Assembly (NCBI RefSeq): GCF_056712565.1
Contig: NZ_CM160072.1
Reading direction: 5' to 3' (one strand)
Length of the DNA stretch: 64,000 bases
The notes under the pieces are model-generated. The model was given only the letters and a program-made list of their open reading frames with translations. It was not told where the DNA came from and searched no databases. Of the stretch, positions 48,501 to 52,057 are shown one piece after another; position 1 is the stretch's first letter; each line of letters opens with the position of its first letter. The position numbers were made by a program, and so were the translations under genes.

Positions 48501-49346
48501 ATGGCTGAAGCGCAAAATGCTCCCCTGCTGCCGGGATACTCGTTTAACGCCCATCTGGTGGCGGGTTTAACGCCGATTGAGGCCAACGGTTATCTCGATT
48601 TTTTTATCGACCGACCGCTGGGAATGAAAGGTTATATTCTCAATCTCACCATTCGCGGTCAGGGGGTGGTGAAAAATCAGGGACGAGAATTTGTCTGCCG
48701 ACCGGGTGATATTTTGCTGTTCCCGCCTGGAGAGATTCATCACTACGGTCGTCATCCGGAGGCTCACGAATGGTATCACCAGTGGGTTTACTTTCGTCCG
48801 CGCGCCTACTGGCATGAATGGCTTAACTGGCCGTCGATATTTGCCAATACCGGTTTCTTTCGCCCGGATGAAGCGCACCAGCCGCATTTCAGCGACCTGT
48901 TTGGGCAAATCATTAATGCCGGACAAGGGGAAGGGCGCTATTCGGAATTGCTGGCGATAAATCTGCTTGAGCAATTGTTACTGCGGCGCATGGAAGCGAT
49001 TAACGAGTCGCTCCATCCACCGATGGATAATCGGGTACGCGAGGCTTGTCAGTACATCAGCGATCACCTGGCAGACAGTAATTTTGATATCGCCAGCGTC
49101 GCACAGCATGTCTGCCTGTCGCCGTCGCGTCTGTCGCATTTGTTCCGCCAGCAGTTAGGGATTAGCGTATTAAGCTGGCGCGAGGACCAGCGCATCAGTC
49201 AGGCGAAGCTGCTTTTGAGCACCACCCGGATGCCTATCGCCACCGTCGGTCGCAATGTCGGTTTTGATGATCAACTCTATTTCTCGCGAGTATTTAAAAA
49301 ATGCACCGGGGCGAGTCCGAGCGAGTTTAGGGCAGGTTGTGAATAA
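48501..49346 (+). CDS. araC: arabinose operon regulator AraC; C-terminus shortened and recoded by the adjacent islet
   Basis: 281 aa from ATG 48501 ([19 protein letters not shown]...), ending ...[11 protein letters not shown]; the K-12 form I recall is 292 aa, ending ...[19 protein letters not shown]. Confidence 0.93.
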
Positions 49347-49392
49347 TAAGAAAGAAGGGGGGGAACCCCCTTGCTTTCTTCATCTGACGTTA
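49347..49392 (+). terminator. putative rho-independent terminator immediately after the araC stop
   Basis: aagaaagaaggggggg-aa-cccccttgctttctt hairpin followed by a T-rich tract. Confidence 0.55.
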
Positions 49393-49860
49393 TTTATATA
49401 TTTCACGGGGGATTAATTTTAGTTATTTTTAGTTGAATCGTTTTACCTGAATTATTTTTTTTCTTGATAAAATATCGACAACGATTTCTTTTTGTAAAAA
49501 TAAAACGAAGGCTTATGTATCGGGATACCCATCATGAACATATTGTCCGGTTGCATCAGGAGAATATATCAAGCGGTTTGTTCATCGTAGGAACACCACA
49601 TTGAGCGGTTATGGCAGGCACTTCACGCCACCATAAATGCCGTTCGATGTGGCAGTTGTTGAAAAAAGTACGGCATTCTATGAAAAACGCCAGTTACTCC
49701 CTCAGAGGAGAACATGGTCTGGCAAAAGTGTAGCGGCATCAGGCGCAGCTATCTTTGTAAATTCATTCATAAAATGAATTGTATACAAAAAAATATTGAA
49801 AAATAATATTTTTCCTTATTGATATTATTTGCTATACGTTTTTTTTGAGGGGAGATTGTG

Positions 49861-50709
49861 ATGAGCAAACGTAACGATATTACTGATGGAATATTTGCAA
49901 CAACGAAAAAGTATGGATTAGTTTATACCGAAGAGTTAGGTTGGATCGATTTGGGGCATGCTCAGGGACAAGATGCCAGAATATTAAAAAGAAAATTGGA
50001 GCAAGAACATTTTTCAACATATTACGATGAATTTCATGATTGGTATTTTCCTGTTGATTATCATCAGGAAATGGGAATTCGGAAAAAAATATTAGGAGTA
50101 GATCTTACATTTCATACCGGTGTTTATACGAAGGTTATGGTTCGTTCATGTCTTTCACCCACTCTTAAAGCAAGAGTTGCCTTAACGTTAATGTATGGAA
50201 CTGCGAAGAGGTTTGAAGCATGGCAAAACTCATTTATTTTTAACTGGTATACTGATAGCGGATTTAGTGCAGAAGATTTAGTCTCAGACTTGATTGGTTT
50301 TTATCGTGTATTTGGAACAGGCCCCGATCCACTTTTATTGGCAAAACCTTTATCTTACACAAAAGCCTTACAAATATGGGATACATATGGAGCGCCAGGG
50401 AATTTTAAAAATACTGAGTTTACGCCATTCTTATTTACAACCCATCCTCCTTTTAAAAAAAATCAACTAATAAAAAAGAAGCTTCCAGAATGGTTAAATT
50501 ATATAAAGCCATTAGATGAGTCTTTTTCAATATTGTTATATAATCAATATAATAATAGACCTGTTACTAATTATTATAAAGATAAAAACAGAATAAATCA
50601 TGAGTTGTATAGTTCATTATCAAGTTCGGGAGCTATAAAGTTTTCAGAATCTCCCTTTGAAAGACCGCTTTTTCTTTTCTTAAACCCTCATTATCCGCAC
50701 AGGTCGTGA
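49861..50709 (+). CDS. hypothetical protein, 282 aa, no signal peptide, family unassigned
   Basis: Uninterrupted 283-codon ORF in roughly 30% GC DNA (unlikely by chance); RBS gaggggag 6 nt upstream of ATG 49861 (GTG at 49858 also in frame); product rich in K/N/Y/F: MSKRNDITDGIFATTKKYGLVYTEELGWIDLGHAQGQDARILKRKLEQEHF... Confidence 0.7.
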   Translation: MSKRNDITDGIFATTKKYGLVYTEELGWIDLGHAQGQDARILKRKLEQEHFSTYYDEFHDWYFPVDYHQEMGIRKKILGVDLTFHTGVYTKVMVRSCLSPTLKARVALTLMYGTAKRFEAWQNSFIFNWYTDSGFSAEDLVSDLIGFYRVFGTGPDPLLLAKPLSYTKALQIWDTYGAPGNFKNTEFTPFLFTTHPPFKKNQLIKKKLPEWLNYIKPLDESFSILLYNQYNNRPVTNYYKDKNRINHELYSSLSSSGAIKFSESPFERPLFLFLNPHYPHRS

Positions 50710-50715
50710 GTAGAG

Positions 50716-51138
50716 ATGTCAAAATATATTTATATTTTATTATCATTTTTAGTTTTATTCTTTATATTTTTCTATGCTTATATCTCATTGATGTCAAAGG
50801 AACATCACTATACACAGCATGAACTTTCCCCATTTTTCCTTTATACGCCAGAGAGTTTGCGAAATTTGCCAAACATATCAAACGTAGCCGAGTATAGCTA
50901 TTACTATAATGTTGATGATATGCAAACAAGAGTGATTGTTACATGGCGAAATATAGATAACATTTTTCTTCAGAAAGCAAAGCTAATAGATTTTTTGAAA
51001 AGAATGGGACCGAGTCTACAAAACGATTGTATATGGTTTTTTCATGATAAAAGTGATTATGCAAATAATTTCCAGCGTTATTGCATCATTGAGCACCGTG
51101 ATTCTCTGCAGGTGGAATATTTTGAGACTATCGAATGA
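50716..51138 (+). CDS. hypothetical membrane-anchored protein, 140 aa, family unassigned
   Basis: Starts 6 nt after the upstream ORF stop (operon / translational coupling); N-terminal hydrophobic segment YIYILLSFLVLFFIFFYAYISL followed by an approximately 110-aa soluble domain. Confidence 0.65.
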   Translation: MSKYIYILLSFLVLFFIFFYAYISLMSKEHHYTQHELSPFFLYTPESLRNLPNISNVAEYSYYYNVDDMQTRVIVTWRNIDNIFLQKAKLIDFLKRMGPSLQNDCIWFFHDKSDYANNFQRYCIIEHRDSLQVEYFETIE

Positions 51139-51159
51139 TAGGCAGAGGGTGTCTTTTGT

Positions 51160-51207
51160 GCCGGTTGTGAAGAAAAAGTGAATGATGTAGCCGTCAAGTT
51201 GTCATAA
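51160..51207 (+). other. displaced native 3' end of araC (non-translated remnant)
   Basis: gccggttgtgaagaaaaagtgaatgatgtagccgtcaagttgtcataa encodes ...AGCEEKVNDVAVKLS*, the K-12 AraC C-terminus, now separated from araC by the islet; yabI starts 85 bp after it as in K-12. Confidence 0.8.
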
Positions 51208-51292: not shown

Positions 51293-52057
51293 ATGCAAGC
51301 ATTGCTGGAACACTTTATTACCCAATCCACCGTGTATTCATTGATGGCGGTGGTGTTGGTGGCCTTTCTGGAGTCGCTGGCGCTGGTCGGTTTGATTCTA
51401 CCCGGTACGGTGCTGATGGCGGGGCTGGGAGCGCTGATTGGTAGCGGTGAGTTAAGTTTCTGGTACGCCTGGCTGGCGGGGATTATTGGCTGCCTGATGG
51501 GCGACTGGATCTCCTTCTGGCTGGGCTGGCGTTTTAAAAAGCCGTTGCATCGCTGGTCATTTCTGAAGAAGAACAAAGCATTACTCGATAAAACCGAACA
51601 TGCGCTGCATCAGCACAGCATGTTCACCATTCTGGTCGGTCGTTTTGTCGGTCCGACGCGTCCGCTGGTGCCAATGGTGGCGGGAATGCTGGATCTCCCG
51701 GTGGCAAAATTTATTACGCCGAATATTATCGGCTGCTTGCTGTGGCCACAGTTTTACTTCCTGCCGGGGATTCTGGCGGGTGCGGCGATCGATATTCCTG
51801 CCGGGATGCAGAGCGGTGAGTTTAAATGGTTGCTGCTGGCAACAGCGGTGTTTTTGTGGGTTGGAGGCTGGCTGTGCTGGCGGTTATGGCGCAGCGGTAA
51901 AGCGACTGACCGTTTGAGTCATTATTTGTCCCGCGGTCGTTTGTTGTGGCTGACGCCGTTGATTTCTGCCATCGGCGTGGTGGCGCTGGTGGTGTTAATT
52001 CGCCACCCGTTGATGCCGGTGTATATCGATATTTTGCGTAAAGTGGTTGGGGTTTAG
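51293..52057 (+). CDS. yabI: DedA-family inner membrane protein
   Basis: 254-aa polytopic membrane ORF; synteny. Confidence 0.92.
   Translation: MQALLEHFITQSTVYSLMAVVLVAFLESLALVGLILPGTVLMAGLGALIGSGELSFWYAWLAGIIGCLMGDWISFWLGWRFKKPLHRWSFLKKNKALLDKTEHALHQHSMFTILVGRFVGPTRPLVPMVAGMLDLPVAKFITPNIIGCLLWPQFYFLPGILAGAAIDIPAGMQSGEFKWLLLATAVFLWVGGWLCWRLWRSGKATDRLSHYLSRGRLLWLTPLISAIGVVALVVLIRHPLMPVYIDILRKVVGV

Follow-up and report, generated by a model that had tools for sequence, protein, structure and literature searches.

A low-GC islet of about 1.8 kb separates araC from yabI in the 64,000-nucleotide stretch of Escherichia coli DNA analysed here (hereafter, the window), where a K-12-type genome has only 85 bp, as a preliminary description of the sequence had indicated. 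The locus raises two questions: how did the islet come to lie there, and what do its two genes do?

Insertion of the islet at the araC stop codon

The islet lies between the stop of araC, at position 49346 of the window, and the start of yabI, at position 51293. The GC content of segment 49347-51159 is 33.9%, whereas the window as a whole has 52.5%, araC 53.0%, and yabI 54.4%. The low-GC character initially described is thus real, although the value is near but above the "roughly 30%" then given. According to the ORF list and the sequence, ORF1 and ORF2 are the sole genes of the islet, and the ORF list returns for them the positions already reported (49861-50709 and 50716-51138, with a 6-nt gap). 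The features of the locus are the following:

48501..49346, + strand: araC, 281-aa form whose last residues, RAGCE, precede a TAA stop (ORF list; RefSeq annotation of ATCC 11775, identical at this locus)
49326..49346, + strand: left copy of an imperfect direct repeat of 21 bp, TTTAGGGCAGGTTGTGAATAA, which contains the stop codon that araC uses here (sequence)
49355..49372, no strand assigned: G/C-rich palindrome directly past the araC stop, resembling a terminator hairpin in either orientation (terminator scan)
49594..49733, + strand: IS630-family transposase pseudogene fragment (RefSeq: frameshifted, incomplete, missing N-terminus)
49830..49837, + strand: possible promoter of the two-gene operon, a candidate extended -10 element, TGCTATAC (conserved motif)
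49861..50709, + strand: ORF1, 282 aa, ATG start, CapCone-1 Lipocone protein by sequence and predicted T6SS cargo toxin (WP_000044501.1)
50084..50090, + strand: A7 homopolymer inside ORF1, site of a 1-nt deletion in Nissle 1917 (window-versus-Nissle alignment)
50716..51138, + strand: ORF2, 140 aa, predicted cognate immunity protein, with a transmembrane anchor and a PsbP/Mog1-like domain containing Cys105 and Cys123
51154..51174, + strand: right-hand repeat copy, TTTTGTGCCGGTTGTGAAGAA, in which GAA takes the place of the TAA stop of the left copy (sequence)
about 51158..51207, + strand: displaced non-coding relic of a K-12-type araC 3' end, terminating in GCEEKVNDVAVKLS and a stop (base-by-base K-12 comparison)
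51293..52057, + strand: yabI (DedA family), the right-hand core flank (ORF list, RefSeq annotation)

The islet was first thought to have replaced the 3' end of araC. It is instead an insertion, with a duplication, at the araC stop codon: a direct repeat is present at both sides and a K-12-type araC tail persists downstream. The two repeat copies (49326-49346 and 51154-51174) are identical at 17 of 21 bases, and an equivalent repeat, GCTGGATGTGAATAA, is found in Citrobacter and Salmonella. The relic at 51158-51207 shows 98-100% identity to the araC 3' end of islet-free E. coli among the matches listed (approximately 4,300 matching genomes). Within araC itself, comparison with K-12 reveals five differences in the last ~31 nt and four in the preceding 119 nt. 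The islet accounts for a difference in length of the textbook regulator AraC, which has 281 aa here, as in Salmonella and Citrobacter, versus 292 aa in K-12: the tail of the 292-aa form may have arisen from an islet-free araC reading through the GAA-bearing right copy of the repeat. As to the origin of the islet, it may be ancestral and have since been lost from most E. coli, or it may have been gained by some B2-type lineages.

The preliminary description also considered the islet to be devoid of any recombinase. It does contain the trace of a mobile element, namely the IS630-family transposase pseudogene fragment annotated by RefSeq. As this fragment is missing from the islet versions of Citrobacter, Salmonella, Leclercia, and Trabulsiella (in Citrobacter and Salmonella, the spacer between araC and ORF1 is 167 bp long and lacks it), it represents a secondary insertion specific to E. 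coli. Its absence from the versions found in other genera also led us to reject IS630 as the vehicle of the islet.

The palindrome located past the araC stop likewise lies in a segment peculiar to the E. coli version of the islet; the terminator scan that identified it returned five sites, versus 1.1 expected. A Rfam scan of the islet yielded no RNA family (the sole match was manA-II, with an E value of 0.59), and a promoter scan of the islet performed no better than on shuffled sequence (11 sites versus 9.4 expected). A TGnTATA(A/C) element, located ~25 nt 5' of the ORF1 start, is kept in E. coli, Citrobacter, Salmonella, Leclercia, and Trabulsiella, and may be the promoter of the operon. Both this promoter-like motif and the ribosome-binding site are kept across genera.

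ORF1 and the CapCone-1 family

Neither protein could initially be placed in a family, and no catalytic signature had been recognized in them. Judging from its sequence, ORF1 belongs to the CapCone-1 family of the Lipocone superfamily: its residues 3-152 correspond, with one mismatch, to CAR16209.1 of the published CapCone-1 dataset, and its motif GWIDLGHA occurs 48 times in the published CapCone-1 sequence file. It carries a Lipocone His/Glu/Asp site, together with the G-x5-H and SxxSxxD motifs of CapCone proteins. In H2, the active-site His33 is preceded by a Gly at a distance of six residues and by the xD motif that the family definition sets four residues ahead of this His (G27-W-I-D30-L-G-H33). 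H3 contains E119 and, near its end, the polar Q122. In H4, the active-site Asp139 follows the family's S/GxxSxx motif, with an aromatic-Ser pair three residues ahead of the Asp (S133-G-F135-S136-A-E-D139); S142-D143 corresponds to the small residue plus Asn expected four residues past this Asp, and G146 lies near the H4 end. In an alignment of 38 sequences, G27, D30, H33, E119, Q122, S133, S136, D139, and G146 are invariant, and F135 and D143 are nearly so (at least 90%). Position 143 is an Asp in the enterobacterial clade instead of an Asn, the consensus of the wider family being S-N. From these sequence features, ORF1 is predicted to be an enzyme cleaving or exchanging phosphate-linked lipid head groups. 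No experimentally tested CapCone protein was found in our literature search.

The AF2 model of ORF1 is confident (pLDDT 85.8). Strands 20-23 and 27-30 form a hairpin just before H33, and a long hairpin spans residues 60-95; these modelled hairpins are consistent with the published CapCone "clasp" and "cap". No fold similarity was found between ORF1 and the solved Lipocone toxin TelC. Searches of Pfam, NCBIfam, PADLOC, and PHROGs with ORF1 and ORF2 returned nothing usable, the best Pfam result for ORF1 being DUF4056 (PF13265) at a non-significant E value of 0.4 (10.4 bits). Seven of 52 diverse ORF1 relatives match DUF4056 at E <= 0.001 and, at the same threshold, LysM is detected in four of these 52 relatives and an eCIS_core/DUF4157 cargo domain in one. 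PDB sequence-profile searches using three alignments recovered only LysM, in C-terminal extensions of some relatives, and chance matches. ORF1 has no signal peptide, no transmembrane segment, and no known T6SS trafficking domain. With 282 aa, it is longer than is usual in the family (~230 aa), which may matter for carriage inside Hcp.

ORF2, a fast-evolving partner

ORF2 displays a PsbP/Mog1-like fold, preceded by a strongly hydrophobic N-terminal anchor at about residues 5-23, the predicted transmembrane helix spanning residues 3-26; both transmembrane prediction and hydropathy support the single N-terminal anchor noted from the outset. As a word-indexed homolog search for ORF2 recovered E. 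coli sequences only, its partner family was gathered from the loci of ORF1 homologs. Across these partners, the mean net charge is +2.2 before the transmembrane helix and -0.6 after it, and the exported domain contains exactly two cysteines in 43 of 63 cases. Because of the hydrophobic anchor, the positive-inside bias, and the conserved Cys pair, we predict that the C-terminal domain of ORF2 is periplasmic.

Eag/DUF1795 chaperones (SciW, EagT6/PA0094) are cytoplasmic and bind the N-terminal transmembrane helices of prePAAR effectors. ORF2 differs from them in being membrane-anchored and, according to our prediction, periplasm-facing, which brings it nearer in location to DcrB, a periplasmic protein of PsbP/Mog1 fold; no sequence similarity of ORF2 to either Eag/DUF1795 chaperones or DcrB was detectable. 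The combination of a soluble cytoplasmic protein with an effector carrying transmembrane helices is not found here, as ORF2 is anchored and the ORF1 model contains no transmembrane segment.

Immunity proteins typically evolve faster than their cognate toxins. Divergence is higher for the partner than for ORF1 in 700 of 700 pairs (mean identity of 34.7% among partners versus 54.9% among ORF1 homologs), and the two divergences are correlated (Spearman rho 0.69). As the islet holds no further gene, ORF2 is its only candidate immunity gene. Unexpectedly for an essential immunity protein, a frameshift in an A-run disrupts ORF2 but leaves ORF1 intact in the loci of C. freundii.

Genomic contexts of ORF1 homologs

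Our census contains 86 loci of ORF1 homologs, 80 of which also carry a member of the partner family. While ORF1 and ORF2 are 6 nt apart in the window, the two genes overlap by 4 nt (ATGA) in most homolog loci. The only recurrent accessory neighbour is an orphan hcp gene, which is present within ~3.5 kb in 15 of the 86 loci (directly upstream and on the same strand in five); most loci have no T6SS gene nearby. No other conserved gene fit for an immunity role was found in the islet or in the 86 loci. The gene order is araD / hcp-ORF1-ORF2 / polB in Buttiauxella, the pair is located among core genes (ndh to mfd) in Yersinia, and several genomes carry three to four paralogous ORF1-ORF2 pairs. The recurrent partner and the hcp linkage, together with the CapCone-1 membership of ORF1 and the faster but in-step divergence of the partner, back the toxin-immunity idea put forward in the preliminary description.

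No hcp was found in the 64-kb window, and the E. coli islet contains no hcp, vgrG, or PAAR gene. E. coli ATCC 11775, whose islet matches that of the window with 100% identity, possesses a complete T6SS at aspV, ~170 kb from the islet, comprising tssA-M, two hcp genes, vgrG, and a PAAR gene. The 159-aa Hcp of this strain, WP_000013181.1, aligns without gaps, at 45% identity, with the product of the hcp gene located upstream of a Pectobacterium ORF1 homolog.

Comparison with described systems

[quoted passage not shown] The likeness to our pair is close: the core of ORF1 is part of the dataset, the motifs are shared, a PsbP/Mog1-like gene lies downstream, hcp occurs on either side, and DUF4157/eCIS fusions exist in relatives. 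The toxin family was already described computationally in 2025, and our finding is no new kind of system. That paper is purely computational, without discussion of the E. coli islet (PMC12419801). ORF1 is standalone, unlike the many CapCone-1 members that form the toxin tips of Rhs proteins and are paired with BamE-like immunity. In addition, the PsbP/Mog1-like partner is regarded there as a T6SS marker (PMC12419801), whereas the topology, cysteines, and divergence described above speak rather for an immunity protein in the periplasm. The sister family of ORF1, CapCone-DUF4056, exhibits similar YT..G.ID..H and S.FS.ED..SN motifs, but DUF4056 genes typically follow an outer-membrane beta-barrel gene and such a neighbour is absent from the 86 ORF1 loci.

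Two characterized toxins are informative for comparison. TelC, from the TelC-TipC pair of Streptococcus intermedius (Whitney et al. 2017), belongs to the same Lipocone clade as CapCone-1 and ORF1 (ClaspCone-CapCone-TelC). This toxin acts against bacteria in a contact-dependent manner and only outside the cytoplasm, cleaving lipid II between undecaprenol and diphosphate, and its immunity protein likewise acts outside the cytoplasm (summarized in PMC12419801). Orphan Hcp-linked T6SS pairs of the Ssp6-Sip6 type, found in Enterobacteriaceae (Mariano et al. 2019, PMC6889166), resemble ORF1-ORF2 in their organization: a small standalone effector gene is followed by a closely spaced or 4-nt-overlapping immunity gene, at variable chromosomal sites, sometimes by an orphan hcp and in up to several copies per genome. 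However, Ssp6 is an ion-selective pore former of an unrelated family, whereas ORF1 is a predicted enzyme, and Sip6 has 67 aa and two transmembrane helices, versus 140 aa and a single anchor for ORF2 (PMC6889166). From this description of Sip6, we rejected the possibility that the two pairs form a single family.

Distribution in E. coli and alternative explanations

The distribution of the islet in E. coli, which the preliminary description proposed to check, is patchy: the pair is present in 486 of 5426 complete genomes. ORF1 is full-length, at >=99.5% identity, in ~80% of sampled carriers, and frame-breaking length changes affect it in 12 of 60 sampled carrier genomes (~20%). A 1-nt deletion in the A7 run frameshifts ORF1 of Nissle 1917. 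In the RefSeq annotation of Nissle, ATCC 25922, and clone D i14, ORF1 is represented by two separate genes, and truncated E. coli proteins of 177-202 aa are common in the protein database. ORF2 is intact where ORF1 is broken.

Such changes might indicate that the cassette, regardless of what it did ancestrally, is now a functionless, decaying relic in E. coli, and the presence of the IS630 fragment upstream of the operon would fit this scenario, as would the length changes, the Nissle 1917 deletion, and the frequent truncated forms. We nonetheless consider it quite unlikely, as full-length, nearly identical ORF1 copies persist in most sampled carriers, ORF2 is unbroken even beside a broken ORF1, every predicted catalytic residue is intact in the window, and the promoter-like motif and ribosome-binding site are conserved across genera; moreover, toxin loss with immunity kept is typical of active effector-immunity dynamics. 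[quoted passage not shown] Most Lipocone families are indeed housekeeping lipid, peptidoglycan, or exopolysaccharide enzymes, the Yersinia pair lies among core genes, and T6SS genes are not near most of the 86 loci. This seems quite improbable to us given the patchiness of the pair in E. coli, the low GC content of the islet, the three to four paralogous pairs of some genomes, the recurrent hcp neighbour, the fusion of one relative to an eCIS_core cargo domain, the very rapid divergence of the partner, and the ORF1 frameshift of Nissle 1917, along with length-changing indels in several other carrier lineages. CapCone-1 is also assigned to "biological conflict" in the published family analysis (PMC12419801).

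Two further explanations concern the kind of conflict and the role of ORF2. ORF1 could be a T6SS toxin and ORF2 an Eag/DUF1795-like adaptor or chaperone involved in its loading, immunity being located elsewhere or unneeded. The hydrophobic anchor, positive-inside bias, and usual two cysteines of ORF2 rather indicate a periplasmic domain, Eag partners are prePAAR effectors with N-terminal transmembrane helices while ORF1 has none, no alternative conserved immunity gene is found in the islet or the 86 loci, and the partner evolves faster than the toxin, as is typical of immunity proteins. An adaptor role is thus unlikely, even though Burroughs et al. take the PsbP/Mog1-like partner as a T6SS marker akin to Eag/DUF1795 chaperones, and not as immunity (PMC12419801). 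An anti-phage defence module, acting for instance by abortive infection via damage to the cell's own membrane lipids, had also been envisaged in the preliminary description. Some small defence systems have a comparable layout, in which a soluble enzyme is paired with a small membrane protein, and the Lipocone family Min-Wnt has been linked to antiviral immunity, but CapCone-1 is missing from the antiviral Lipocone contexts listed in the same analysis (PMC12419801). As neither protein matched PADLOC even at E <= 1, PHROGs gave a single match at an E value of 0.15, and the 86 loci are located outside defence islands, with hcp and no defence gene as recurrent neighbour, the defence idea is unsupported and appears very improbable.

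A probable effector-immunity cassette

We consider that the islet is probably an orphan T6SS effector-immunity cassette with a predicted lipid-carrier target, its toxin most likely attacking the head groups of membrane lipids or of cell-wall precursors. ORF1 would be synthesized in the cytoplasm as a soluble CapCone-1 Lipocone enzyme without export signal, would join the T6SS as cargo, most likely via an Hcp, and would thereby be delivered to adjacent Gram-negative cells. Once in the periplasm of the attacked cell, ORF1 is predicted to use its His33/Glu119/Asp139 site to cleave or exchange the phosphate-linked head group of a lipid. The analogy with TelC makes an undecaprenyl-pyrophosphate-linked envelope precursor, such as lipid II, the likeliest substrate, and depletion of this precursor would block cell-wall or envelope synthesis. 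ORF2, presumably translationally coupled to ORF1, would have its anchor in the inner membrane and its PsbP/Mog1-like domain on the periplasmic side, where it would bind and neutralise ORF1 arriving from sister cells. The analysis shows that ORF1 belongs to the family and has its catalytic motifs intact, that the gene pair is conserved, that hcp recurs beside it, that the matching genome has a T6SS, and that the partner has the predicted topology of an exported protein and diverges fast and in step with ORF1; the secretion, toxicity, and substrate of ORF1, as well as its neutralisation by ORF2, we infer.

We put forward only tentatively, as a possible but rather doubtful reading, that in ORF1 a Gram-negative Lipocone enzyme delivered by a T6SS would be demonstrated for the first time and, jointly, that ORF2 would represent a novel type of immunity protein against such toxins. 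If true, ORF1 would hydrolyse undecaprenyl-pyrophosphate-linked envelope precursors in a TelC-like manner within the periplasm of the target cell, and immunity through a membrane-anchored PsbP/Mog1 fold would reassign a gene now taken in the literature as a T6SS adaptor. The islet is hosted by easily manipulated, much-studied E. coli strains (ATCC 11775, IHE3034, and UTI89), with Nissle 1917 as a natural frameshift variant. Owing to these tractable hosts, it offers a convenient entry point to the questions of whether these Wnt-related domains attack lipid-carrier head groups, whether they are T6SS cargo, and which role the PsbP/Mog1-like partner plays. For E. coli itself, the cassette adds a candidate factor in competition, one particular to some of the extraintestinal pathogenic strains.

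Insertion of a two-gene islet at the araC stop codon

The araC and yabI genes are 85 bp apart in a K-12-type genome, as the preliminary description had stated. In the window, the islet found between them carries ORF1 and ORF2 and no other gene, at exactly the coordinates proposed there for a two-gene operon and with a gap of 6 bases between the two. GC content from the araC stop (49346) to the right junction is 33.9%, versus 52.5% for the window, 53.0% for araC and 54.4% for yabI, so that the islet is indeed GC-poor, but less so than the "roughly 30%" initially put forward. Nor does it replace the 3' end of araC, as had been claimed: it is inserted at the stop codon of araC and flanked by imperfect direct repeats, identical at 17 of 21 positions.

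Features of the islet (window coordinates)
49326-49346: left direct repeat TTTAGGGCAGGTTGTGAATAA, at the araC stop
49355-49372: perfect, G/C-rich palindrome AAGGGGGGGAACCCCCTT, just 3' of the araC stop, with a terminator score on both strands
49594-49733: IS630-family transposase pseudogene fragment, upstream of ORF1
49861-50709, + strand: ORF1, 282 aa from ATG
~50520-50706: C-terminal extension of ORF1 (residues ~220-282), lower model confidence (pLDDT 53-88)
50716-51138, + strand: ORF2, 140 aa
51154-51174: right direct repeat TTTTGTGCCGGTTGTGAAGAA

The right repeat runs on into an intact, non-coding K-12-type araC tail (..EEKVNDVAVKLS*), which ends at 51207. AraC is 281 aa long in the window, with a TAA stop; K-12 has GAA at the same codon and reads onward to 292 aa. 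This length polymorphism (window 49341-49346 and 51169-51207) distinguishes carriers (TAA, 281 aa) from islet-free strains (GAA, 292 aa). As the right repeat of islet strains already contains GAA and leads into the K-12 tail, loss of the islet by deletion from one repeat to the other would directly give the K-12 form of araC. The final ~31 nt of araC beside the islet show 5 differences from K-12, versus 4 in the preceding 119 nt, so that the history of the islet edge differs from that of the remainder of the gene. The islet may be either ancestral, with loss from most E. coli, or a later gain.

The E. coli islet has ~350 bp of extra upstream sequence, absent from the versions found in other genera, and the G/C palindrome falls within it. 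The IS630 fragment is likewise confined to this E. coli-only sequence; it is thus a later addition, and IS630 is ruled out as the vehicle of the islet. About 25 nt 5' of ORF1, an extended -10-like motif, TGnTATA(A/C), is conserved in five genera.

Strain ATCC 11775 is 100% identical to the window over the entire 1879-bp interval, and 486 (at ≥80% coverage) of the 5426 complete E. coli genomes carry it, with one chromosomal copy per carrier according to the ORF1 search. Carriers include the phylogroup B2 strains IHE3034, UTI89, APEC O2:K1, Nissle 1917, ATCC 25922 and clone D i14.

ORF1 and the CapCone-1 family

Searches with ORF1 yielded only DUF4056 in Pfam (E 0.4), no match in NCBIfam or PADLOC, and a single PHROGs match (E 0.15). 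Its homologs form 307 clusters at 90% identity, mainly from Enterobacterales, and 679 clusters at 50% identity (E ≤ 0.001). Among 52 diverse relatives, DUF4056 was matched by 7 at E ≤ 0.001 and by 23 at E ≤ 0.1; LysM (four relatives) and the eCIS_core (DUF4157) cargo domain (one) were also detected at E ≤ 0.001, and a few relatives gave weak VanZ or DUF2279 matches. DUF4056 provided the link to the literature: Burroughs, Nicastro & Aravind (eLife 2025, PMC12419801) defined the Lipocone superfamily and, inside it, a ClaspCone-CapCone-TelC clade. Their source data include the E. coli protein as a CapCone-1 entry, CAR16209.1, which corresponds to ORF1 residues 3-152 with one mismatch. Neither islet protein had initially seemed placeable in a known family; judged by its sequence, ORF1 is a member of this published, computationally defined toxin family.

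All the residues that define the CapCone-1 family are present in ORF1; across a 38-sequence alignment, nine are invariant, and F135 and D143 are conserved in at least 90% of the sequences. They comprise the H2 histidine H33, with G27 six residues before it and D30; the H3 glutamate E119, with Q122; S133xxS136xxD139, with F135-S136 ahead of the H4 aspartate; S142-D143; and G146. The outcome of modelling and fold search was mixed. Confidence is high for the AlphaFold2 model (pLDDT 85.8, pTM 0.85); it places a beta-hairpin right before H33 and a long hairpin at residues 60-95, which in the model are consistent with the described clasp and cap. The relationship to TelC rests on the published profile analysis and on the motifs, not on the fold search done here. 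Members of the ara-linked clade carry a C-terminal extension of ~50-60 residues, absent from the common ~230-aa members.

The pair in other genera and its link to type VI secretion

The pair also lies between araC and yabI, next to a 281-aa AraC as in the E. coli carriers, in Citrobacter freundii, C. portucalensis, C. farmeri and a rare Salmonella enterica lineage. Junctions were read in C. freundii and Salmonella, where a repeat of the same kind (GCTGGATGTGAATAA) flanks the islet. In Leclercia and Trabulsiella, the pair is located between araD and polB, and Buttiauxella gaviniae has hcp-ORF1-ORF2 at that site (locus L022, 7506-9219); this hcp appears frameshifted. The long-form clade of the pair (loci L018, L019 and L022 among others) shows linkage to the ara region across six genera, at two different junctions, araC/yabI and araD/polB. 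Several genomes contain three or four paralogous pairs. Elsewhere, in Yersinia pseudotuberculosis (L007-L010), the pair sits between ndh and a glycine-zipper lipoprotein gene adjoining mfd; all four of these contexts and Y. similis share one arrangement, so that the pair looks fixed rather than variable.

In our census of 86 loci, hcp is the only recurrent accessory neighbour (15 loci). Five of these have it immediately upstream and in the same orientation (Brenneria, two Pectobacterium, Buttiauxella and Vibrio ruber). In eight loci of Xenorhabdus and Photorhabdus, it is just downstream and convergent; these eight probably represent one orthologous context, leaving about six independent ones. 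The published CapCone-1 network independently contains HCP upstream (8) and downstream (8), as well as RHS fusions at the N-terminus (94) and DUF4157 fusions (21) (PMC12419801). The majority of the 86 loci are without T6SS genes nearby, the 64-kb window contains no hcp, and no recognised T6SS trafficking domain is present in ORF1. At the aspV tRNA, ~170 kb from the islet (L098, record 3739000-3768800), ATCC 11775 carries a complete T6SS, comprising tssA-M, two hcp, vgrG, a DUF2169 gene and a PAAR gene. In a gap-free alignment, its 159-aa Hcp is 45% identical to the product of the hcp that immediately precedes an ORF1 homolog in Pectobacterium; the figure for its 171-aa Hcp is 33%, with gaps. 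ISAs1 remnants and two hypothetical genes adjoin the PAAR gene, and the latter could be further effector-immunity candidates.

ORF2: immunity protein or adaptor

Direct searches with ORF2 retrieved E. coli sequences only, and the partner family was assembled from the genes that follow the ORF1 homologs. It is found in 80 of the 86 loci as proteins of 127-158 aa with the motif Y..(Y/L)TP(D/E)..K..P.IS..Y, commonly encoded with a 4-nt overlap with the ORF1 homolog. The very confident ORF2 model (pLDDT 94.7) shows a TM helix (residues 3-26) followed by an alpha/beta domain. Foldseek returned no significant match. Model and fold search assign ORF2 to a known fold, PsbP/Mog1-like, in agreement with the published network file, where 'PsbP/Mog1' is the most frequent downstream neighbour of CapCone-1 (89 loci; PMC12419801).

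The same authors read this partner as a marker of T6SS secretion, or adaptor. Our data point instead to an immunity protein in the periplasm. Partners begin with a strongly hydrophobic helix, with a net charge of +2.2 before it and -0.6 after it, and the exported domain contains exactly two cysteines in 43 of 63 non-redundant partners (C105 and C123 in ORF2). Partners diverge faster than ORF1 in all 700 sampled pairs (mean identity 34.7% vs 54.9%), and divergence in the one correlates with that in the other (Spearman 0.69). Finally, as the islet has no other gene and no second conserved neighbour was seen across the 86 loci, ORF2 is the sole immunity candidate if ORF1 is a toxin.

Citrobacter freundii provides a counter-example: in all four loci (L003-L006), ORF2 is frameshifted in an A-run (about 9095-9160 in L003), in two different variants, next to an intact ORF1, an unexpected state for an immunity gene. 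Slippage during transcription of the A-run may account for it. In C. portucalensis and C. farmeri, the 140-aa partner is intact. In E. coli Nissle 1917, a 1-nt deletion turns the A7 run at 50084-50090 into A6 and frameshifts ORF1, leaving ORF2 intact. ORF1 is likewise annotated as split by RefSeq in ATCC 25922 and clone D i14, the UTI89 match spans 848 bp versus 849 bp, frame-breaking length changes affect ORF1 in 12 of 60 sampled carrier genomes, and truncated versions from E. coli are frequent in the protein database. Toxin loss with immunity kept is in keeping with effector-immunity dynamics, and shows that the toxin is dispensable.

Proposed mechanism and significance

Family membership, intact motifs, the conserved pair, hcp linkage, a genomic T6SS, and the predicted topology of the partner and its evolutionary rate are established here; secretion, toxicity, substrate and neutralisation we infer. 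The authors of the Lipocone study deduce one chemistry for all active members, in which phosphate-linked lipid head groups are removed or exchanged, and TelC cuts lipid II between undecaprenol and diphosphate, being active only outside the cytoplasm (PMC12419801). ORF1 would be synthesised in the cytoplasm, a compartment in which a Lipocone toxin that acts in the periplasm should do no harm, then loaded as T6SS cargo, probably via Hcp, and delivered into the periplasm of a neighbour. There, its H33/E119/D139 site would attack a phosphate-linked lipid head group, most plausibly, by analogy with TelC, an undecaprenyl-pyrophosphate-linked precursor. In kin cells, ORF2 would be anchored to the inner membrane with its domain on the periplasmic side, and would there neutralise the incoming toxin.

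The islet is probably an orphan T6SS effector-immunity cassette, a familiar format shared with Ssp6-Sip6, although the latter is unrelated in sequence to ORF1-ORF2; an anti-phage defence module, also suggested initially, was unsupported by every test run. New here are an account of the E. coli islet with its junctions, of how it is distributed and decays across E. coli genomes, the recurrent ara-region linkage of the pair in six genera, and the argument for the PsbP/Mog1-like partner as an immunity protein rather than an adaptor. Our literature search found no experimental study of any CapCone protein, and the cassette, while no surprise in kind, offers good experimental access to this enzyme family.
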